The notes beneath the pieces were generated by a model that did not search any database, was not told the DNA's origin, and saw only the letters and a program-made list of their open reading frames with translations. The translations under genes and the position numbers were made by a program. Positions 3,711 to 52,933 of a stretch of DNA of 64,000 nt are shown here, piece by piece. Origin of the DNA: Escherichia phage phita32; sequence record PQ758395; one strand, given 5' to 3'. How positions within the stretch are numbered: the first letter of the stretch is position 1; each line of letters opens with the position of its first letter.

Positions 3711-4475
3711 TTGAAATTTATCTACAAAGAACACTACCACAAAGGTGTTGTGTGGAGCCTATTTGACGGGTCTGGTGGTGCAGTCATTGACTGGGCAAAA
3801 GCTGGGTACCTGTGCCTGTGCTTTAATGCAGAAGGTGCTGATCACGGCAGTTATGCAGAGGTGATAACCGATCATCACAACATTCACTATGTGGATTATT
3901 GGATTGATCCATGGTTCCCTCAGGAAACTTTTTGCATGTATCCAGCTCCAGACTTTATTCTTGCATTTCCTCCGTGCACGCATTTAGCGGTATCAGGTGC
4001 TGCACATTTTAAGAAAAAACTGGCTAAGGACCCCATGATCCAAATTAATGCTGTAAAGGATGCTCGGGTTGCGGAAGAGCTGGGAGAGATTTACGATTGC
4101 CCGTGGCATGTAGAGAATCCTGTGGGTGTTATGTCCACACTGTGGCGTAAACCTGATTACCGTTTTCATCCTTCTGACTATGGTGGGTATTTACCGGAGG
4201 ATGATGTAAACCCTTGGTTTCCTGAATTTATAGCTCCACGTGATGCCTATCCAAAAATAACTTGCGGCTGGATAGGTAATGGATTTATAATCCCGCCCAC
4301 AAAACCTGTCCCGCAAATAGTTGACGCGGTTAGCGGGTATTCCATGCAACACGCCAAGCTGGGTGGAAAGAGTGCAAGAACGAAGATGATTCGAAGTCTC
4401 ACACCACGTGGCTGGGCAAAAGCCGTATTCTTAGCAAACGAGCCTGTAGTAAGGAGCAGAATTAATGGGAAGTAA
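3711..4475 (+). CDS. putative DNA cytosine-5 methyltransferase-like protein
   Basis: Track ORF starts GTG 3681 inside the terminator; TTG 3711 has AGGAGA SD 7 nt upstream. Motifs resemble C5-MTase I (LFDGSGG), IV (FPPCTHLAVSG) and VI (HVENPVG); short for the family and PCT rather than PCQ. Confidence 0.35.
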   Translation: MKFIYKEHYHKGVVWSLFDGSGGAVIDWAKAGYLCLCFNAEGADHGSYAEVITDHHNIHYVDYWIDPWFPQETFCMYPAPDFILAFPPCTHLAVSGAAHFKKKLAKDPMIQINAVKDARVAEELGEIYDCPWHVENPVGVMSTLWRKPDYRFHPSDYGGYLPEDDVNPWFPEFIAPRDAYPKITCGWIGNGFIIPPTKPVPQIVDAVSGYSMQHAKLGGKSARTKMIRSLTPRGWAKAVFLANEPVVRSRINGK

Positions 4476-6543
4476 ATTTATGGCATCTGCATACAACCGT
4501 TTCGGTGAGCCAAACCCGAAAGCAACTAAGTATAAAAGTGGGGGAAGTGTGAAACGAGACTATCGTGATGAAAAAGAAGTTGAAACTGTAGAGACTGTTT
4601 TAGAAAATACTAAAATTGTCCCTGTCCCACAACAAAATATCGGTCTGATGGCTGCACAATATTTTGGTGTGCGATCAGCATTGTCCCAAGAAGACGGTGT
4701 GACAGTCACTGCAACATATTTCCCATATTACGACCGCTACGGAAATCTGTCTGGTTTCAAAAAGCGTGACTGGACTATTCCTAAAGAGCAAAGGGGCCAT
4801 TTCTCCGTTGTTGGCATCGTAAAGGCCAACTCCCAGATGTTTGGTCAAAAGCTGTGTGCATCTTCCAACAACCGTAAGCAGATTAACGTTTGTGAGGGAG
4901 AAGGTGATGTTATTGCAGCATGGCAGGCTGCATATCAGATACAAGTAAAAGGGATTCTCACCAACGCTAAAGCCCCGGCAAAGGTGAAGCAGTGGGCTAA
5001 AGAGGTCCAGGACGGGATCGACGCAGTTATCAACGGTGGTGATCTGGCAGGAAAACCATGCCTACCTTTTGTTGGAATTAACTGTGGATGTGCAAACGCA
5101 GTAGATACTTTTGCAAACAATGAGAAGTTTATCCGTAGCTATGGAACAGTTGTGCTGGCAATGGATAATGATGCAGCTAACGAGGTAGAGAAGCAAAAAC
5201 ACGTCATTAAAGGTGTTGAGGCCACGCATAATATCGCAGCATTTTTGATGGCTGATAACGTTTACCACGTAGAATACCCTGGTGAAGTAAATGACCCTGA
5301 CGGTGTAAAAGATATCCGAGACATGCTGAAGGCTAAAAAGCTGGAAGATATTGTCAACATGTTCCGGCACCCTGTTAAATATGTGCCTGATGCTGTGTCG
5401 GATTTAGAAGACTTCTCTATCGAGTCTTTGCGGAAAAAGACTTCCAACGGGGTAGATATCAGCGCAGAGTTCCCAAAACTGCAAAAAATGCTAAAAGGCT
5501 TGCACAAAGGGACACTCGTAATGCTTACAGGCCCGTCAGGTGGCGGTAAAACAACTGTAGCTAAAAAACTGGAACACTGTATTGCAAGATACCTAATGGA
5601 CCCGACATGTCCGAAGGCCGATGACTACGAAGAGGATGATCGTCTATGCATGATCCATCTTGAGGAGGACCCAGAGGAAGCAATTAACTCCTTGTATGCA
5701 AACCAGTTAGGGTTTGATGTTAAAGAGTTTGTTGAAGATCCTAGCCAGTTTTTAACTGATCAAGAACACGCAGAGATTCACCAATCATGGGCAAAAGCTG
5801 GAAAAATCAAAGTGTTCAAACATTTCGGATCTATTCCGGTGGACGAGTTGATTACTAAGCTTAAGCAAATGGTTTGCCTGTACCATTGTCGTTATATTGT
5901 ACTGGATCACCTGTCCATGGTAATTTCAGGGCTTAATGTTAAGGATGAGCGAAAAGAACTGGACATGGCTATGACCCAACTGGCTGCGTTTTGTAAGCAG
6001 TTTAACGTGTTTATCTTGGTGATCGCTCACCTCAAGCGTATAGAGATTGTGCCTCCTAAGGACAAGGATGGTAACCCGTTACCTTTCTGGTATCCTGTGC
6101 GAAAAGAGAATTTGCGAGGATCGGCTGGGCTTGAACAGTTGAGTTGGGTAGTCATAGGTGTCGAGGCCGAAGAAATGGTGGATCGTTCTCGTGGACGTGT
6201 CCGTCTGGTAGGTCTTAAAAACCGTCCAGCAAAAACTTTAGGTATTGCTGACACTTTAGTTATGGACCCTCACACAGGCAAGTTCCATGATGCCAGCAAT
6301 TGGTACTGGGACAAAGAAATGCAGATGTTTACAGACGGAGAAGGTGGGGAGGTTGTTTGGAGACCTCAGGCTATGTTTGAGGATCAGGAGCATACAGTTG
6401 TAGAAACACCTATGGGTAAGGTTGTGGCTGATAAGGTTGTAACTCCTACTGTTAAGCCTGTTGACACGCAGGAAGACCTCCAGTACGATGATCCATCCTC
6501 TGACCCTGTCCCTGGTTTTGAGGACGATGAAACGCCTTTTTAA
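4465..6543 (+). CDS. bifunctional DNA primase/helicase (Toprim + DnaB-like RecA-fold ATPase, T7 gp4-like)
   Basis: Toprim-like VCEGEGDVIAAW and LAMDNDAANE acidic motifs; Walker A LTGPSGGGKTT; Walker B YIVLDHLSM; AAGGAG SD. Confidence 0.8.
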   Translation: MGSKFMASAYNRFGEPNPKATKYKSGGSVKRDYRDEKEVETVETVLENTKIVPVPQQNIGLMAAQYFGVRSALSQEDGVTVTATYFPYYDRYGNLSGFKKRDWTIPKEQRGHFSVVGIVKANSQMFGQKLCASSNNRKQINVCEGEGDVIAAWQAAYQIQVKGILTNAKAPAKVKQWAKEVQDGIDAVINGGDLAGKPCLPFVGINCGCANAVDTFANNEKFIRSYGTVVLAMDNDAANEVEKQKHVIKGVEATHNIAAFLMADNVYHVEYPGEVNDPDGVKDIRDMLKAKKLEDIVNMFRHPVKYVPDAVSDLEDFSIESLRKKTSNGVDISAEFPKLQKMLKGLHKGTLVMLTGPSGGGKTTVAKKLEHCIARYLMDPTCPKADDYEEDDRLCMIHLEEDPEEAINSLYANQLGFDVKEFVEDPSQFLTDQEHAEIHQSWAKAGKIKVFKHFGSIPVDELITKLKQMVCLYHCRYIVLDHLSMVISGLNVKDERKELDMAMTQLAAFCKQFNVFILVIAHLKRIEIVPPKDKDGNPLPFWYPVRKENLRGSAGLEQLSWVVIGVEAEEMVDRSRGRVRLVGLKNRPAKTLGIADTLVMDPHTGKFHDASNWYWDKEMQMFTDGEGGEVVWRPQAMFEDQEHTVVETPMGKVVADKVVTPTVKPVDTQEDLQYDDPSSDPVPGFEDDETPF

Positions 6544-6601: not shown

Positions 6602-9025
6602 ATGAGTATGTGGTCTTTCGATCTGGAGGCCTCCGGGCTTTTGGAAGATCTAGATCTTTATTATCACTGCGGTCTGTTTAAAGAGCTGAATAAGAACCGT
6701 TTTATGCTGTTCCTTCCTCTAAATGACCGCACACACTACTCCAAGGAGGATATAGAGAAGGCCAAGAACTTTATTCTGGCAAAGAAAACTCTTTATAAAG
6801 ATTTTGAAGTCCGCATAGCAGATTTTTCGGAGTTGGAAGGTTGGCTTACAGGCAATTCCGACTGGTCACCAACAGCTTTGAACTGCCATAACTGCTACAG
6901 TTATGACTTTATGCTGATGGAGAGATTATCCGGTATTCATTTTGATATGTTCCGTGATCCTAAATGCATGGGGACTATCAACGACCACCAGGTTAATCTG
7001 TTTGATACGTTGGCGATGAGCCGAATCTTGTGGCCTGATCGCCCTTTACCAAAAGGTTGTCCGGACTCTGTATTCAACCCGGTTACTAAGAAAATGCAGC
7101 CTGTTGGTCCTCACGGCCTTATGGCATGGGGCTACGCCCTTGGTAACCAGAAAGTTCAAATTGATGACTGGCGCGATCTTCCGTTGTGGAAGTATGTGGA
7201 TCGTGTATTCGAGGACGTTATCATCCAGGAGCTGCTCTGGAAAGAGCTGGTAGCGGAATCAAAAGGTGTATTCTACGGCAAATCTGACATGCAGAACTTT
7301 ATGTATGATCCTGCCAAAGAGAAGCCGAAAGGGTTCAAGAAGATCACCTGGAAGAACGCATTACGTCGAGGCATGCTGCAGCACTTCCTGATGGAGCTGC
7401 AGGCCCGTCAGGGTGTATACTTCGACATAGATGGAGCTATTGCTTTACGTGACCGTTGCGATGCGTGGATGAAAGAAATCGCTGATCGTGTTGAACCACA
7501 ACTACCTTTAAAAGAGCTGTCAATGTCTCAGCGGCCCAAGTTCCCTGAAAAGCCGTTTAACCAAGACGGGACAATCTCTAATAATGGTTGGAAATGGTTA
7601 AAAGATAAGCTTGGCTATCCTGTAGACATGAGCGCTTTAGAGTTCAAAGCCCCGCCTAAGCGAGCATTTACCTCTACAGGGGATGTCAGCAAGATGGGGA
7701 TAAAATGGTGTGAAGAGATGGGCTGCAAAGACCCCGATAAGATGGCTGATTTCTTGAGAGGCTATATTAAGGGTACCTCCACACCACAACCTTTACCTAA
7801 AGAGCTAATGGATCAGGCAATAAGTGATCTGCAGCAGAAGCGAATGCCTGACTGCAAGATACCTATGAAAATCGGCAATCAGGACGACATCAAGCGATAC
7901 CTAATCAGTGCTGGTTGGCTCCCAACAATGTGGAGAACTAAAGATGTAACTAAAGACAGCAAGAAGAAAGCTTTACCTGATGCAGATGTTGATGCACGAG
8001 TATATGCATACATGGACGAGCTTTTAGAGTCAGAGTATTGTGACCTGATTATCAACTTCTGGAACAAAACTGATGCTAAGTTTCAGACAACCGTGCACAA
8101 GTTCCGAAGCTTTCCTAACTCCGAAAGGATTAAAAAGGAAGTGTTCGGGAAAATACGTAGAAAAGCCAGGGCACTTATTACTTCTCCGCAACTGAAAGAT
8201 ACGTTTGGACACCTATGCCCAAATCTTGAAAAATTGAACGGAGAGATGGCTAAAGATATCGTCTTGTGGTTATCATTGCGAAACCGCAGATCGGTCCTTG
8301 ATCCAATCAAGGAGGATAAGGTTGATACTGGTCTTCTTAATCACCCACGTTTGAAGATTGACCATAAGCTTCCTGCTAAAAGCTCTGGATTAACAAACAC
8401 TTCCAGACAGAAACACAGTATTTGTGCAAACATGCCTAAACCATCTCCTAAAGTGGTTATGGGTAAAGAGATGCGTAGTCTGTGGGGTGTTCCTCCAGGA
8501 TACTTTGAGATCGGTATTGACGGGTCCAACTTAGAGCAGCTTATCGGGGCTTGGGGTGCCTTTGAGTTCGACAACGGCTTGTATTATGATGTTGTAAGTA
8601 ACGGAGACGCACACCAAAACAATGCTGAGGCATATACAAAAGTAGCAGGCAGAGAGGTGTCCCGTAACGACGGTAAACCTATCACGTATGGGGTTATGTA
8701 CGGGGCACAAAAAGATAAAGTTGCAGATATGCTGGACATCTCTCCAGAGTTGGGACAAAGGGTAATCGATGCACTCTGGGATGCCAACCCAGGTCTTAAG
8801 GGGCGCAAAGAGGATCTGGAGAAATTCTGGGAAGCAACAGGTAAGAAGTTTATCTACTCTTTTGATGGTCATGCTATCTGGACCAGATCTAAACACTCTT
8901 TACTTAATGCATACCAACAAAATGGCGGTGCATCGTTGTGTGACTTAGTTGGAATACTCATGCACCACCAGATGGTGAAGCGTGGGTGGTACGATGAAGG
9001 TGTTCGTCGTATTATTTATTACCAT
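6602..9025 (+). CDS. DNA polymerase, family A, exon 1 (3'-5' exo + palm motifs A and B)
   Basis: N-terminal FDLEASG Exo I-like motif; motif A YFEIGIDGSNLEQL; motif B RNDGKPITYGVMYGAQ; ORF runs 2 codons into intron before stop at 9031. Confidence 0.8.
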
Positions 9026-9301
9026 AAATAACATTGTGGCTTCATAGAGTAATCTATGTCGAATAACCTCTTTAACTGCGGGAAGCCTAAACCTTATGGC
9101 AAGGTAATCCGCAACGAAGCGCTCAAAAGAGCGAACGCTCAGAGGCCATTCCGAAAGGAAGTAGACCAGCAAGTGCGGTCGAAATGGGAGGATTCCTGTG
9201 GTTGCTTATTATAGGAATATGAGATGGTCCGATCCTACGTGAAAACGTATGGCTATGCACGTAATGGTGCGGGGTAGCTTAACGACCTACCTGAACTATT
9301 G
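9026..9301 (+). ncRNA. group I self-splicing intron (no ORF) in DNA polymerase gene
   Basis: Exon 1 ends in U (..UACCAU) pairing with intron GUGG guide at 9037-9040; intron ends in G 9301; P/Q/R/S-like core elements AACTGCGGGAAGC 9074-9086, TAATCCGCAACG 9105-9116, GCTCAGAGGCC 9137-9147, GAGATGGTCCGATCC 9221-9235; splicing restores motif C YHDEYQLQV. Confidence 0.6.
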
Positions 9302-9655
9302 GATGAGTACCAACTTCAAGTGCCTGACACACCGAAGTATAAGACTGTGTACACCTTCGACACAATTGAAGAACTGGAAGCATTTAAGGCAGAGCAGGAA
9401 GCCAAACTTCATGTGTTCGACGGTCATAAGTACAAAAAGGCACGCAAGGATGAGGACGGAAACGAAGTGGTTGACAGAGACGGAAACACGGTGTACGATC
9501 CTATCCTGAACGATGACGGAAAGCTTGAACTTATCTGGAGCCCTGTGGGTGAAATGGTGGTGCATTGCTTCTGGCAAGCTTCTAAAATGATGGGAGTCCC
9601 GTTCCAGATCACAGGTGAATACTTGTGTGGGGCTAATTGGGGTAGTTGCCATTGA
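9302..9655 (+). CDS. DNA polymerase, family A, exon 2 (motif C and C-terminus)
   Basis: Begins DEYQLQV (completes HDE motif C) and ends GANWGSCH, matching T7 pol / Pol I C-terminal signature; no start codon or SD of its own. Confidence 0.7.
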   Translation, partial: DEYQLQVPDTPKYKTVYTFDTIEELEAFKAEQEAKLHVFDGHKYKKARKDEDGNEVVDRDGNTVYDPILNDDGKLELIWSPVGEMVVHCFWQASKMMGVPFQITGEYLCGANWGSCH

Positions 9656-9666
9656 TCTGATAAGAG

Positions 9667-10323
9667 ATGTTTGCTATGGAAGAATGGAGAAAACTGGTTG
9701 GCAAGGAGGCCAACTATGAAGTTAGCAGCAAAGGAAGGATTAAAAGGCTGTCTTACCTGAGGAAGTACAGTAACCAAACAGGTAAAGTTACTTTCAAAGC
9801 TGTCCCTGACAGGATTTTAAAAGGTAGCGTAGACAGTAGCGGTTACATTCAAGTAAATGTGGATGGAAGATCGGAATTGCTTCACAGGTTAATTGCCGAG
9901 ACCTTTCTAGAGCCTCCTTCAAAAGAGCTTGTAGAGGAATGTAAGGCAGCAGGGCTGGACTATGTACCGATTAATCATAAAGACCATAACCGCCTAAACA
10001 ATGCTGCTGACAACCTTGAATGGGCCTCGCCTTCAAAAAATGCACAAGATGTGGACTACGATTACTGTAAAACAAGAGGTGAAAATTCATACTGTGCAAA
10101 ACTTAAAGAGCGAGATGTTGACGAAATATTAAAGCTTTCCAAAACAGGTATGTCGCAGCAAGCTATAGCAGATCTTTTCGGTGTTAATCAGATAACCATT
10201 TCCAATATCTTGACAGGAAGGAGTTGGGCATGGTACACTGGGATACCTAAAACCGCAAGGTGTAAAAACAAAAGGAAGAGATCCCCAAAAAGCATGTCCG
10301 AGCAAAATTTCTCGGTAAGCTGA
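9667..10323 (+). CDS. HNH homing endonuclease (NUMOD4 + HNH_3 + C-terminal HTH), free-standing
   Basis: EEWRKLVG..YEVSSKGRIKRL NUMOD4-like; INHKDHNRLNNAADNLEW HNH motif; C-terminal LSKTGMSQQAIADLFGVNQITISNIL helix-turn-helix. Confidence 0.8.
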   Translation: MFAMEEWRKLVGKEANYEVSSKGRIKRLSYLRKYSNQTGKVTFKAVPDRILKGSVDSSGYIQVNVDGRSELLHRLIAETFLEPPSKELVEECKAAGLDYVPINHKDHNRLNNAADNLEWASPSKNAQDVDYDYCKTRGENSYCAKLKERDVDEILKLSKTGMSQQAIADLFGVNQITISNILTGRSWAWYTGIPKTARCKNKRKRSPKSMSEQNFSVS

Positions 10324-10382
10324 TTGTCACTAATGTAAACTATCAACACATGGAAGTGTTGTTGAGCAAAGAGGAGACTTTT

Positions 10383-49250: not shown

Positions 49251-50222
49251 TCAGCAACCACAACTTCCGTAGTGCTTAACCCGTTCTATAACTTCCGCTT
49301 GCTTACCCTTATTGTAAGGACGGGAGTTAGGACTGGAAAGGTATCCAGACACACGTCGAATTACGCTGATCGTTCCCTCTTCATGGTTTCCACACTCTGG
49401 GCATACAAAGCCTTTAGCTGTTGCACTGAACTCACCAGAGAAACCACACTTGAGACATTTATCCACAGGCTGGTTGATACCAAAATACATAATGTGTTTA
49501 TATCCGAAATCAACAAGAGCTTCCAAAGCATCTAAGTTGTTTTTCAGATTTGGTGTCTCTACGTATCCGATGTTGCCACCAGAGGAGATCATAGCAAAAC
49601 CTTCCTCATACTCCCACTTATCAAAAGGAGAGCTATTGATCCATACTGGCTGATGGAAACTGTTGGTGAGATATTCATGCTCGTGCTTCAACACTTCAGG
49701 ATATTCACGATCCAGACAGGTTGCAGCTTTATAGCATAGACTCTCAGAAGGGGTGCCGTACAAGCTAAACGCTAGTCTACTTTCCTTCTTGTATCGCTCA
49801 CAAGCATCTCTCATGTGCTGAAGTATTCCAAGAGCTAAAGCCTTGTCACCCTCCCTGCCCAAAATCTGACAGGTTTCATACACACCAATATACCCAATAC
49901 TGATGGAAGCGTACCCGTCATAGAAGAGTTTATCAATACTCTCTTCAGGATCCAGGCGAGCAAGAGCGCCTTCACACCACATGATAGGGTTCTGCCCTGC
50001 CTTTGTTCCTTTTAGACGGTTAACCCTTACAAGGTGAGCCTCGTATGCAAGATCCAGGTATTCGTCAAGAACTGCAAAGAAATCAACACCTTCCGTTTTA
50101 GCTTTTGCCGCAATCATTGGCAGGTTAAGGCTAACAACGCCTAAGTTAAATCTGCCAAGGTATTTCTCCTCGCCTGTTACAGGGTCGCTATATTTCGATA
50201 AGAAACTTCTACACATTATGTT
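49251..50222 (-). CDS. nrdD: anaerobic ribonucleoside-triphosphate reductase NrdD, exon 3
   Basis: CRSFL..NLGVVSLNLP .. glycyl-radical RVSGYL and C-terminal Cys cluster, colinear with E. coli NrdD residues about 390-712. Confidence 0.8.
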   Translation of the reverse strand, partial: NIMCRSFLSKYSDPVTGEEKYLGRFNLGVVSLNLPMIAAKAKTEGVDFFAVLDEYLDLAYEAHLVRVNRLKGTKAGQNPIMWCEGALARLDPEESIDKLFYDGYASISIGYIGVYETCQILGREGDKALALGILQHMRDACERYKKESRLAFSLYGTPSESLCYKAATCLDREYPEVLKHEHEYLTNSFHQPVWINSSPFDKWEYEEGFAMISSGGNIGYVETPNLKNNLDALEALVDFGYKHIMYFGINQPVDKCLKCGFSGEFSATAKGFVCPECGNHEEGTISVIRRVSGYLSSPNSRPYNKGKQAEVIERVKHYGSCGC

Positions 50223-50993
50223 CAGGGTGGTTCGCAAGTCCACCCCCGCACCTTTACGTGCTGCTGCATGTTCCCATGCAGATCAGACTATATCTTCACA
50301 CTTAGTGTGTCTACCATTTCGAGTGTCATCGGCTTACACCCTACACCGCTACATTCATCACGGTTAGTCGTTAGGCATTTCGTAACAGAACTCGTAATCA
50401 TAGTTATTAGGCGCACCACGTTTCAGGATAGCAGATATTCTTTTTCTATCTACTCCTAAAACATCAGCACAACATCTCAGACTTTTAAAGTGGAAAACCT
50501 CACCAGTTAATTTGTTGGTGGCTTTCACACCGTGGCATCTTGTGTAAAAAGCATAACAGTTGTTGTTGTATCCTTCTTGCGTATTGTCTGGGCAAGCTCC
50601 CCACTCAAGGTTGTATACACTGTTATCTTTCCTGTTGTCCCCTTTGTGCTTAACATAGGGTAAATTGTCTGGATTTGGTAAGAACGCTTCAGCAACAAGT
50701 CTGTGAACCCTTAGGCAAACAGTCTTTTTGTTCTTGCGTATCCTAACAAGACGGTAACCTGTGTTTATCTCTTCCCACGAATGAATAATTCTTTCATTTT
50801 CGTAGCGGGTGCAATAAACATTGCCCATCTCGTCAATTTCATAACCTTCAAAATCACGAATTTGTTTTCTCATTTCAGGACTCCTCTTGGTCAGGAGTTC
50901 TGTTACGTTTAGCACGGGATTGTCCGTTCTGGAGTTTCCCCGTTTAGATAGATTTTACATGAGCAGTTATAGTTTACCCATGCTCGTTACTTT
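50223..50993 (-). mobile_element. group I intron 2 in nrdD carrying an HNH homing endonuclease gene
   Basis: NrdD frame breaks after KVTGSTDG and resumes at NIMCRSF with no start codon; upstream exon ends in U, intron ends in G (complement of 50223); junction uncertain by about 3 nt. Confidence 0.55.
50364..50915 (-). CDS. HNH homing endonuclease (intron-encoded)
   Basis: HNH_3 motif VKHKGDNRKDNSVYNLEW; C-terminal HTH SLRCCADVLGVDRKRISAIL. Confidence 0.8.
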   Translation of the reverse strand: MLNVTELLTKRSPEMRKQIRDFEGYEIDEMGNVYCTRYENERIIHSWEEINTGYRLVRIRKNKKTVCLRVHRLVAEAFLPNPDNLPYVKHKGDNRKDNSVYNLEWGACPDNTQEGYNNNCYAFYTRCHGVKATNKLTGEVFHFKSLRCCADVLGVDRKRISAILKRGAPNNYDYEFCYEMPND

Positions 50994-51275
50994 ACCATCT
51001 GTCGAGCCTGTCACTTTACGATTTAGTGGAACAGAAACAAAGTCAGGATAAATCCGCTCTGCAGAGCATTCCAGAGCTAATCGTTTCAAATCATAGTTAG
51101 GATCTCCAGGGTTCATGTTGACACCCTCTTCTAGGAAGAACAGCACTTTAGGGAACACAGGTGTGATACGTTCTTCACCAAGACCCATTTTGTGGACTTT
51201 CAAGTAATTTTTGGTAATCATTCTACCAAAGACCGAGGTATCCAGTCCTAAACTTAATGTGATGAATGGAGTCTG
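50994..51275 (-). CDS. nrdD: anaerobic ribonucleotide reductase NrdD, exon 2
   Basis: QTPFITLSLGLDTS..ITPVFPKVLFF..GDPNYDLKRLALECS colinear with E. coli NrdD residues about 296-390; no start codon. Confidence 0.7.
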
Positions 51276-52072
51276 CTGTCTCCTCCCTGTGTTTCCACAG
51301 GGCCAGACTATCTCTTACTCTACTTCAATAAGATAATAACCCTTTATTGTGAGATGCTTACCTTCGGCATTTCCTTCGATAGCCCTGTGAACGTTACCTA
51401 CGTTCAAATTTAAGGCTTTTGCACAGGCGTAGAGTGAAGGATATTCACCCACCAAGATTTTCCCTTTGTATGCCTGCACTTTCCTATAGCACTTACCTGG
51501 ACAAAGTCCTGTTCGGAAAGCATGTCTCTTATTATCTTCCGGCAAAACCCACTCTAGGTTAGACGGATGATCATTCAATGTATTGCCATCTTTATGATTC
51601 ACTTCCCAATTTTCAGGGTCTTCTGGGACATCTGGCAAACAATACAAGGCAACAACCCTTGAGGTTTGGATTCGAATCTTTTTACCTTTGTGGTTGAAAG
51701 AGTACATATAACGGCGTTTAACATGCTTATTACCTTTTCCATAACCTCCCCACAATATTGGGTGTAGCATTCCACGTTTTCCGTATACGTTTCCAACTTC
51801 ATCAATCACATAGTTTGATTCTTCACCATTAAGAATGATCTTTTTCATAGAGCCTCTCCATTTCGAAGTTAGTATTTCAACTAACCCCTACACTACTTGG
51901 TTCAGAAATGTTTGTCAAGCATCTCTGCCTTTCGTTAGTCGTTACAACCGTTCCAACTCCTGTAAGAACTAGTCACGGGATTGGCATAGCTTTCGCCTTA
52001 GCGTTCCCCGTTAGCCGGATTTACCGACCCCTCTTATGAGGTTAGGAGAGTTTTACAACGGCCAGTTTGTTA
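51276..52072 (-). mobile_element. group I intron 1 in nrdD carrying an HNH homing endonuclease gene
   Basis: Exon 1 ends ..AACGGU; intron starts UAAACAAACUGGCCGUUG, whose GCCGUU can pair with the exon end including the U-G wobble (P1); intron ends in G (complement of 51276); exon 2 resumes QTPF. Confidence 0.65.
51315..51848 (-). CDS. HNH homing endonuclease (intron-encoded)
   Basis: HNH_3 motif VNHKDGNTLNDHPSNLEW; C-terminal HTH; in same frame as exon 2, separated by a stop. Confidence 0.8.
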   Translation of the reverse strand: MKKIILNGEESNYVIDEVGNVYGKRGMLHPILWGGYGKGNKHVKRRYMYSFNHKGKKIRIQTSRVVALYCLPDVPEDPENWEVNHKDGNTLNDHPSNLEWVLPEDNKRHAFRTGLCPGKCYRKVQAYKGKILVGEYPSLYACAKALNLNVGNVHRAIEGNAEGKHLTIKGYYLIEVE

Positions 52073-52933
52073 ACCGTTGACAGAAGTTAACGTATTGATT
52101 TGATAGAGCAAAGTCTGCATGCTGTCAAATACGTCTTTATCTGTCATTTGCATTGCAACAGTCTCAGCATCTGGCAACCAATGTTCCTGGCAAAATTTAA
52201 GGTTCTTCTCATAGGTCGCTTCAGCATACTGTGCCAGATAATGATCAATATGGCTCATAGTCTGACCCCCATATTGAGCACTAGCTACTGCACTAGAGAT
52301 TTGGCTAAGGATTGTTGTTGCAACCCCTATTGACTTCGGCTTACTGACATGTGCGTTACCAATGTTGAATCCGTTTTCCAACATATCTGGATAATTTACC
52401 AAACAACAGTTTGTTAACGGACTGATCAAGTAGTCAAGATCATGCACATGGATGAAGCCTTTATTGTGCTCTTCTGAGACACGGTCTGGCAGGATCTGTG
52501 TTGATGCAAGGTGTTTGCTAAGGATGCCTGCAAGCAGGTCACGATGAGTGTGTACATGATTGGTAGGCTTATTTGCGTTTTCTTTTGTAAATTCATCACA
52601 AGTTCGATCCAAGAAGCCACTAATATCTGCAAGCAGTTTTCCACCTGCCTCTCTGTTATTATCTCTTGTCTGTCTATACTGGATGTATTCTCTGGCTGCA
52701 CATTTTAAACCCATATCCATAAGAGCATCTTCAACAAGGATATGGATATTTTTTACAGAGATCGTGTACTGGTCGGTTGGCAGATTGTTAGCAACAACTT
52801 CATTAACCGCACAAGCGATCCGGTAAGCTTCTTCTTCAGTATGTCCAGACTCAAGTAAGGCGGACTCTGCCGCCTTGATCACCTTAATTCCGTTATAGAA
52901 CTCTTCTCTACCGTCCCGTTTTACAACTTTCAC
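52073..52933 (-). CDS. nrdD: anaerobic ribonucleotide reductase NrdD, exon 1 (ATP-cone N-terminus)
   Basis: MKVVKRDGREEF ATP-cone start; ENANKPT..HRDLLAGI..HVHDLDY..NAHVSKPKSIG..YQINTLTSVNG colinear with E. coli NrdD residues 1-295. Confidence 0.8.

Follow-up and report, generated by a model that had tools for sequence, protein, structure and literature searches.

Phage polymerase genes have been recognized as hosts of group I introns since SPO1. Pol I position 674 is the site of the introns in the SPO1 and Bastille polymerase genes, and position 881 is the site reported for ΦI and W31, two T7-like phages whose introns are described as self-splicing (PMC3428280). Subgroup IA2 is recognized by P7.1 and P7.2 elements that lie between P7 and the 3′ strand of P3 and are joined by G-U-A (PMC3428280). 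In Pectobacterium phage CB7 (genus Certrevirus), splicing of the polymerase introns has been established by RT-PCR and sequencing (PMC7344957).

Two modes of homing are relevant to introns that lack an endonuclease gene of their own. Collaborative homing is defined by cleavage at the site where the intron inserts (PMC3984707). In trans homing of the type described for T4 MobE and nrdB, the cut is made elsewhere and the intron hitch-hikes (PMC2790892). For the phages closest to the one described here, the rV5 paper gives a 775-aa polymerase and mentions introns only for the terminase (PMC3606486), and the BASEL paper set intron boundaries via comparative annotation (PMC8594841). A search of the literature found no experiment on the 276-nt intron of Vequintavirus.

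The window, which is the whole 64,000-nt stretch of DNA analyzed here, comes from an rV5-like coliphage (Vequintavirus). An earlier note on this DNA had proposed that a group I intron lacking an ORF interrupts motif C of the DNA polymerase gene. The present results support this proposal: with a probability of roughly 0.93, the element is a genuine self-splicing group I intron, without its own endonuclease gene, that separates the His codon of motif C from the Asp codon. As near-identical copies are public and one of them is annotated as an intron, the element is already known and ordinary.

The interrupted polymerase gene

Over 3.8 kb around the intron, the window is 96–98% identical to Escherichia phage rV5 and about 100 other Vequintavirus genomes. 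A primase-helicase gene (4465–6543) is followed by the family A DNA polymerase gene, with 58 nt separating 6543 and 6602. The first polymerase ORF (6602..9031) terminates in ...RRIIYYHK*, and the second frame, which opens at 9302 and has its stop codon at 9653–9655, reads DEYQLQVPD...GANWGSCH*. The earlier note had read both ends in this way and had found no start codon or Shine-Dalgarno sequence for the second frame, and both points hold: a Shine-Dalgarno sequence is absent from the region upstream of exon 2, the frame has no ATG or GTG start, and the sole possible start in the ORF list is a TTG made of the last three bases of the intron.

In silico removal of 9026–9301 (276 nt, a multiple of three) joins 6602–9025 and 9302–9655 in frame and produces an ORF of 2778 nt (925 aa) with the junction ...IIYYH|DEYQLQV; the length of exon 1 equals that in the FFH2 annotation. 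The C-terminal third of the polymerase matches T7 DNA polymerase (E=1.5e-13, phmmer), and YYHDEYQL aligns opposite T7 WVHDEIQV, residues 651–658. The HDE of family A motif C, which the earlier note had expected splicing to restore, is present in the spliced translation and corresponds to T7 H653-D654-E655, with the insertion falling between the counterparts of His653 and Asp654. The whole protein scores 31.8 bits against Pfam DNA_pol_A, slightly under the cut-off of 34.3.

Several relatives carry additional insertions around this gene. In Escherichia phage 241Ecol014PP (comparison locus L002, 2498–3495, equivalent to window 8614–8642), an in-frame insertion of about 1 kb in exon 1 extends the CDS to 1132 aa and gives a weak Hint-domain match; it is probably an intein, and the window has no such insertion. 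In FFH2 (L003, 1–505) and Ro1 (L012, 162–785), an ORF that is either HNH or unknown separates the primase-helicase gene from the polymerase gene; the window has none in this place. In some relatives, therefore, the polymerase gene is bracketed by endonuclease genes.

Identity and boundaries of the intron

The Rfam search that the earlier note had put forward as a check gave a clear result. RF00028 (Intron_gpI) matches 9016–9251 with 63.1 bits (E=1.2e-13; gathering score 50), covering model positions 1–253 of 253, and this is the only Rfam hit at the gathering threshold within the 64 kb; 13 comparison loci were scanned with Rfam as well. The last base of exon 1, U9025, is held in a U·G wobble opposite G9036, which belongs to the guide UUGUGG (9034–9039), and the terminal guanosine (omega-G) is G9301, in keeping with the exon-end U and intron-end G that had been noticed before.

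The position of the omega-G is set by an intronless allele. In JeffSchatz (MZ501082), a phage of the same genus, the polymerase CDS is uninterrupted and exactly 2778 nt long, and it is identical to the exons of the window over 46 nt on the 5′ side of the junction, TATTACCAT|GATGAGTACC, and over 20 nt on the 3′ side; the intronless junction sequence is TATTACCAT|GATGAGTA. This allele makes the intron boundaries unambiguous, as the insertion cannot be shifted by even one base, and the coordinates first proposed, 9026–9301, proved exact. Furthermore, three polymerases without an interruption, from Salmonella phage SPLA5a, Raoultella phage Ro1, and Vibrio phage PWH3a-P1, align without a gap at the junction and have YYHDE or FVHDE there. 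In the window, an in-frame UAA lies inside the intron at 9029–9031, two codons in.

Two small ORFs overlap the intron, 9056–9214 (52 aa) and 9249–9509 (86 aa), and neither has a Pfam match. By the ORF list and Pfam, the intron contains no ORF for a homing endonuclease, which agrees with its earlier description as ORF-less. The same two ORFs are annotated in the rV5 RefSeq record (comparison locus L001, 2958–3116 and 3151–3411) as the "hypothetical proteins" gp222 and gp221. They are contained in the intron or span its 3′ boundary, and almost certainly represent artefacts of annotation.

Secondary structure and covariation

The window intron was aligned with five ORF-less introns from the same codon boundary, those of coliphage HMD-6, Avunavirus 18-1-2, and Vibrio phages K412, 10AMN, and 424E50-1 (366 columns). 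A P1–P9.2 structure was drawn by hand and tested by counting pairs on this six-phage alignment (Table 1). Over its 72 pairs, 95.1% of cells are paired, and compensatory changes on both sides occur in 31. When the 3′ partners were slid by 1–3 columns as controls, 34–42% of cells were paired and 1–6 pairs were compensatory, and none of 500 shuffles reached the observed values. Minimum free energy (MFE) folding independently yields P1, P2, P3, P4, P5, P6a, P7.1, P7.2, P8, P9, P9.1, and P9.2; its z-score of −1.79 is not significant alone, and the structural support therefore comes from covariation rather than from the z-score. The conserved core elements that had been suspected from the sequence are thus borne out by compensatory change.

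Within P7, the bulged A9143 is followed by G9144-C9229, a pair that is invariant in 6/6 and that, by analogy, is presumed to be the guanosine-binding pocket. P6a, a regular 5-bp hairpin capped by AAAA, is free of ORF remnants. P7.1, which is missing from the Vibrio homologues, is joined in the window to P7.2 by GUA between P7 and the 3′ strand of P3, which places the intron in subgroup IA2. Inspection of the P1 loop (9028–9033) against the start of exon 2 (GAUGAG) for a P10 revealed no convincing pairing. Together, the Rfam match, the P1 U·G pair, the omega-G, and the covarying P3–P9 core with its P3/P7 pseudoknot identify the element as a group I intron.

Table 1. Coordinates of the polymerase exons, the intron and its structural elements, and the downstream insertion (window numbering)
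Feature	Position	Strand	Description and basis
DNA polymerase (family A) exon 1	6602..9025	+	808 codons, ending ...IIYYH (CAT); ORF list, spliced translation, T7 alignment
ORF-less group I intron, 276 nt, IA2-like	9026..9301	+	Starts AAAUAA, ends omega-G9301; Rfam, covariation, intronless JeffSchatz
P1	9022..9039	+	CCAU|AA (9022–9027) with UUGUGG (9034–9039); invariant in 6/6; also in MFE fold
P2 hairpin CAUAG/CUAUG	9043..9058	+	3/5 pairs compensatory
P3 5′ strand	9067..9072	+	Partner 9186–9191; 2 compensatory pairs, C-G<->U-A and U-A<->C-G
P4	9077–9082/9108–9113	+	Structure and pair counting on alignment
P5	9085–9088/9102–9105	+	A-rich J4/5 and J5/4 between P4 and P5
P6	9115–9116/9136–9137	+	Within 9115..9137; structure and pair counting
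P6a hairpin	9120–9124/9129–9133	+	Loop where FFH2-type relatives hold HNH ORF
P7 5′ strand	9142..9148	+	Partner 9225–9230; 6 pairs, 100% paired, 2 compensatory; pseudoknot with P3
P7.1	9149–9160	+	GAAA loop
GUA linker	9161–9163	+	GUAG invariant in alignment
P7.2	9164–9180	+	Between P7 and P3 3′ strand, after GUA linker
P8 hairpin	9192..9218	+	4/6 pairs compensatory
P9	9234–9252	+	GAAA loop; 5/7 pairs compensatory
P9.1	9257–9270	+	1/4 pairs compensatory
P9.2	9273–9291	+	4/5 pairs compensatory
DNA polymerase exon 2	9302..9655	+	DEYQLQV...GANWGSCH*; opens with catalytic Asp-Glu of motif C
Recoded polymerase 3′ end	9631..9655	+	GGG GCT AAT TGG GGT AGT TGC CAT TGA; alignment with rV5, MaxTheCat, HMD-6, FFH2
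Candidate free-standing homing-endonuclease cassette, 678 nt	9644..10321	+	Missing in rV5, MaxTheCat, HMD-6, FFH2, JeffSchatz
HNH endonuclease gene	9676..10323	+	215 aa with ATG 9676 as the start, 218 aa with ATG 9667; I-HmuI-like
Native polymerase-end remnant	10322..10333	+	GATTGTCACTAA (D C H stop); first two bases complete HNH stop codon

Distribution and natural alleles

By BLAST, the intron is at least 99% identical in 22 GenBank phage records, including rV5, whose copy is 99.6% identical to that of the window. A search with the spliced junction found 116 matching Vequintavirus-type records, and an evenly spaced sample of 60 was classified: 31 lack an intron, 11 contain the 276-nt form, 2 contain one of about 328 nt, 15 contain one of about 842 nt that holds an HNH gene, and 1 is partial. 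With intronless alleles and three intron lengths in one sample, the site is polymorphic within the genus.

The TACCAT| ... |GAYGAR site also bears introns in seven further myovirus groups. In Seunavirus, the SSE121 intron has an HNH ORF and the PVP-SE1 intron a LAGLIDADG ORF; Mydovirus AV124 and Klebsiella phage K54_rec2 (a record without genus) have HNH-bearing introns; and introns occupy the site in Certrevirus CR9, Avunavirus 18-1-2, Pakpunavirus SPA01, Pseudaeromonas phage KLEP7, and Vibrio phages. ORF-less versions are found in the Vibrio phages and an Avunavirus as well. Exon 1 ends in CAU in every intron-bearing allele examined, as P1 requires; of the three polymerases from other genera that lack an intron, two have CAC instead.

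A direct derivation of the window intron by deletion from an FFH2-type intron was considered and rejected. The FFH2 intron is of the 328-nt HMD-6 type with an ORF in the P6 loop, and the shorter P5 and P7.1 of the window variant leave such a derivation unsupported.

Annotation of the locus varies among records. The rV5 RefSeq record has two "DNA polymerase" CDSs and two hypothetical ORFs in the intron region, and FFH2 also has two polymerase CDSs. In the BASEL phage MaxTheCat, the polymerase is annotated as a two-piece joined CDS (3054 nt = 2778 + 276). Across the polymerase region, 16 "Campylobacter phage" records (MG0656xx) are about 93–97% identical to rV5-like coliphages; this identity and their sharing of the intron polymorphism make the Campylobacter host label look doubtful.

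Intron-like segments were also noticed in other genes. In Escherichia phage Av-05 (KM190144, 120740–120872), a segment annotated within the terminase large subunit is 73% identical to positions 8–148 of the intron query, which suggests, from sequence similarity, a related intron in a different gene. In the window itself, nrdD (anaerobic ribonucleotide reductase; 49251–52933, minus strand) falls into three exon ORFs (52933..52073, 51221..50970, and 50243..49254). The two intervening segments each contain an I-HmuI-like HNH ORF (51848..51318 and 50915..50367) and give sub-threshold Rfam Intron_gpI matches of 28.8 and 35.3 bits; both are probably further introns of group I that hold an endonuclease gene.

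The downstream HNH cassette

The HNH gene that the earlier note had placed just downstream (9667/9676..10323) lies outside the intron, 20 nt after the polymerase stop codon and 374 nt from the intron. Pfam finds NUMOD4 (35.5 bits) and HNH_3 (28.4 bits) in its product, both above cut-off, and helix-turn-helix matches below it. The protein matches I-HmuI (1U3E) weakly (E=0.008), with the HKDxN...NL.W catalytic residues aligned, and is about 34% identical to sequences annotated I-BasI; its homologues begin MExW. It has the I-HmuI-like domain plan of NUMOD4, HNH, and C-terminal helix-turn-helix.

The gene belongs to an insertion that begins within the last four polymerase codons and supplies AGT TGC CAT TGA (S C H stop) in their place. 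In HNH-minus relatives, the polymerase ends GGT CGT AAT TGG GGT GAT TGT CAC TAA; the native region of these alleles is GGTGATTGTCACTAA, and the recoded allele of the window is AGTTGCCATTGA. The remnant downstream of the cassette is the native end, GAT TGT CAC TAA. Over 9302–9630, exon 2 of the window has a single mismatch to MaxTheCat and a single, different one to rV5; over its last 25 nt, 8 positions differ, and its new GCT (Ala) codon is the codon of the HNH+ alleles of AV124 and K54_rec2. Polymerases end in CAT TGA in HNH+ alleles from three genera and in CAC TAA in the HNH-minus alleles examined.

At the DNA level, the cassette occurs in only one other phage record, 241Ecol014PP, and it is rare in the genus. 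Protein homologues with 49–52% identity lie directly after the intronless polymerases of SPLA5a, Ro1, and PWH3a-P1, in which the sequence of the intron insertion site is intact, and directly after the polymerases with HNH-bearing introns of AV124 and K54_rec2. The occurrence of homologues behind both kinds of polymerase leaves a dedicated partnership of intron and endonuclease unsupported. HNH proteins encoded within the introns of relatives reach an identity of only about 33% with the window HNH protein. Furthermore, the exon-2 haplotypes next to the intron differ between the two HNH+ Vequintavirus genomes, which indicates that the intron and the cassette were not inherited as one block. From these sequence comparisons, we conclude that the HNH gene is most plausibly an independent free-standing homing-endonuclease cassette with its home at the polymerase 3′ end.

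The HNH protein downstream of the polymerase in Vibrio phage K412 was considered as the same endonuclease and proved unrelated by comparison. An unrelated HNH gene at the same place makes the polymerase 3′ end look like a general landing site for endonuclease genes. In Ro1 (L012, 3440–3553), the annotated polymerase has no ...W..CH end and reads into the HNH gene; TGGCAGATTCGCATTGA resembles TGG GCA GAT T.. CAT TGA minus one G, which would be either a frameshift or an error of sequencing where the cassette joins.

Proposed mechanism and alternative explanations

Splicing in the window phage is inferred here by analogy with described group I introns. The polymerase pre-mRNA would fold into the P1–P9.2 core, and free guanosine bound in the P7 pocket (G9144-C9229, beside the bulged A9143) would attack after U9025, held in the P1 wobble. 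The freed 3′-OH of exon 1 would then attack after omega-G9301, and ligation of the exons would yield ...UAC CAU|GAU GAG..., from which a single 925-aa polymerase could be translated. On unspliced RNA, ribosomes would be halted at the UAA near the start of the intron.

The intron would have no means of its own movement and may persist through descent and through recombination between co-infecting relatives. The HNH cassette appears to be a recent and separate arrival at the last four polymerase codons, which would have brought the recoded copy with it. The most likely substrate of its enzyme is an HNH-minus allele, cut or nicked close to the 3′ end of the polymerase gene, and the intron, 342 nt upstream of the cassette insertion, would at most be carried along by co-conversion.

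An alternative is that the two elements form a two-part mobile element by collaborative homing, in which the HNH enzyme cuts intronless alleles at the site of intron insertion, while the intron shields its carrier from self-cleavage. The layout fits the scheme in PMC3984707 and PMC10448857, with a free-standing endonuclease gene 374 nt from an intron that has no ORF, and both HNH+ Vequintavirus genomes bear the 276-nt intron, although two possibly related genomes are weak evidence for a functional link. However, the homologues with 49–52% identity stand behind intronless polymerases whose insertion sites are intact, the recoded tract is the last 25 nt of the polymerase gene and not the insertion site, and the two HNH+ phages differ in their exon-2 haplotype beside the intron. 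Collaborative homing is therefore improbable here. An extension of this scheme, in which the cassette and the ORF-less intron are a collaborative or trans-homing pair now spreading through the intronless half of Vequintavirus, with the recoded copy of the essential C-terminal codons as a clade-wide self-immunity device, is equally improbable. If it were true, it would, together with the natural series of intronless, ORF-less, HNH-bearing, and LAGLIDADG-bearing alleles at one site, provide an E. coli phage system where crosses could be used to score every step by which a mobile intron forms.

Far less likely is that the 276-nt element is a decaying intron, left over by deletion from one that contained HNH, and now dependent on a protein helper or poor at splicing. 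At the same site, relatives do hold HNH or LAGLIDADG ORFs in the P6 loop region, and the homing-cycle model predicts loss of the ORF after fixation, but P6a carries no trace of an ORF and all core helices are intact. In addition, the intron is preserved at 99% identity or more in 22 records, the polymerase being presumably essential, and ORF-less versions are also present in Vibrio phages and an Avunavirus.

Finally, it is very improbable that the polymerase is made unspliced as two associating polypeptides of 809 aa and about 118 aa, in the way that the nrdA product of phage Aeh1, split by mobE, is reportedly made. The stop codon almost directly after exon 1, the two separate "DNA polymerase" CDSs in the RefSeq records of rV5 and FFH2, and a non-splicing HNH insertion in a different CB7 gene (PMC7344957) would suit such a split gene, but exon 2 lacks both an ATG or GTG start and a Shine-Dalgarno sequence, the catalytic triad is interrupted between its His and its Asp, intronless alleles code for one continuous protein, and a full group I core with abundant compensatory changes would be unexplained if it were functionless.

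Significance and comparison with known systems

A self-splicing intron at this position has a practical consequence for annotation. The RefSeq record of rV5 and many relatives present two polymerase fragments and spurious hypothetical proteins inside the intron, and the correct product is one 925-aa enzyme. Biologically, the intron is nothing new in kind, as the same codon boundary has been reported previously for T7-like phages. Vequintavirus genomes show the empty site, the ORF-less intron, and the HNH intron; LAGLIDADG cargo is found elsewhere at the same site and a free-standing HNH gene next door. Many of these phages can be obtained as isolates, so that the turnover of introns and endonucleases could be studied experimentally at this locus.

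The closest known elements are the introns of rV5 and other Vequintavirus phages (MaxTheCat/Bas57, LL12, and O157 typing phage 5), which have the same site and exons as the window and a 276-nt sequence that is 99.6% identical. The downstream HNH cassette is absent from rV5 and MaxTheCat and present in the window.

Compared to the introns of ΦI and W31, the window intron shows both likenesses and differences. First, Pol I position 881 is His881 of the motif C H881-D882-E883, the same codon boundary as that of the window intron. Second, the ΦI and W31 introns are described as also belonging to subgroup IA2 with P7.1 and P7.2 joined by GUA. Third, they encode an HNH endonuclease in P6a, whereas the window intron is ORF-less. 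Moreover, ΦI and W31 are podovirus genomes and the window is that of a myovirus, and no T7-like phage is among the BLAST matches of the window intron.

In CB7, which belongs to the same subfamily according to the NCBI taxonomy, the polymerase gene is split by two group I introns, as the window gene is split by its intron, but the CB7 introns carry HNH ORFs and the window intron does not. CR9, a Certrevirus related to CB7, has an intron at the same H|DE site. The window HNH protein shares its plan of NUMOD4, HNH, and C-terminal helix-turn-helix with I-HmuI and I-BasI, the HNH nicking endonucleases of the SPO1 and Bastille polymerase introns; those enzymes are intron-encoded, whereas the window enzyme is free-standing and downstream of the gene.

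Like the collaborative homing systems of T7-like phages and of cyanophage S-PM2 (psbA with F-CphI) (PMC3984707), the window has an endonuclease-less intron beside a free-standing endonuclease gene. It differs from them in that the comparative sequence data disfavor cleavage at the insertion site. The T4 MobE-type case is the better analogy for this locus than strict collaborative homing.
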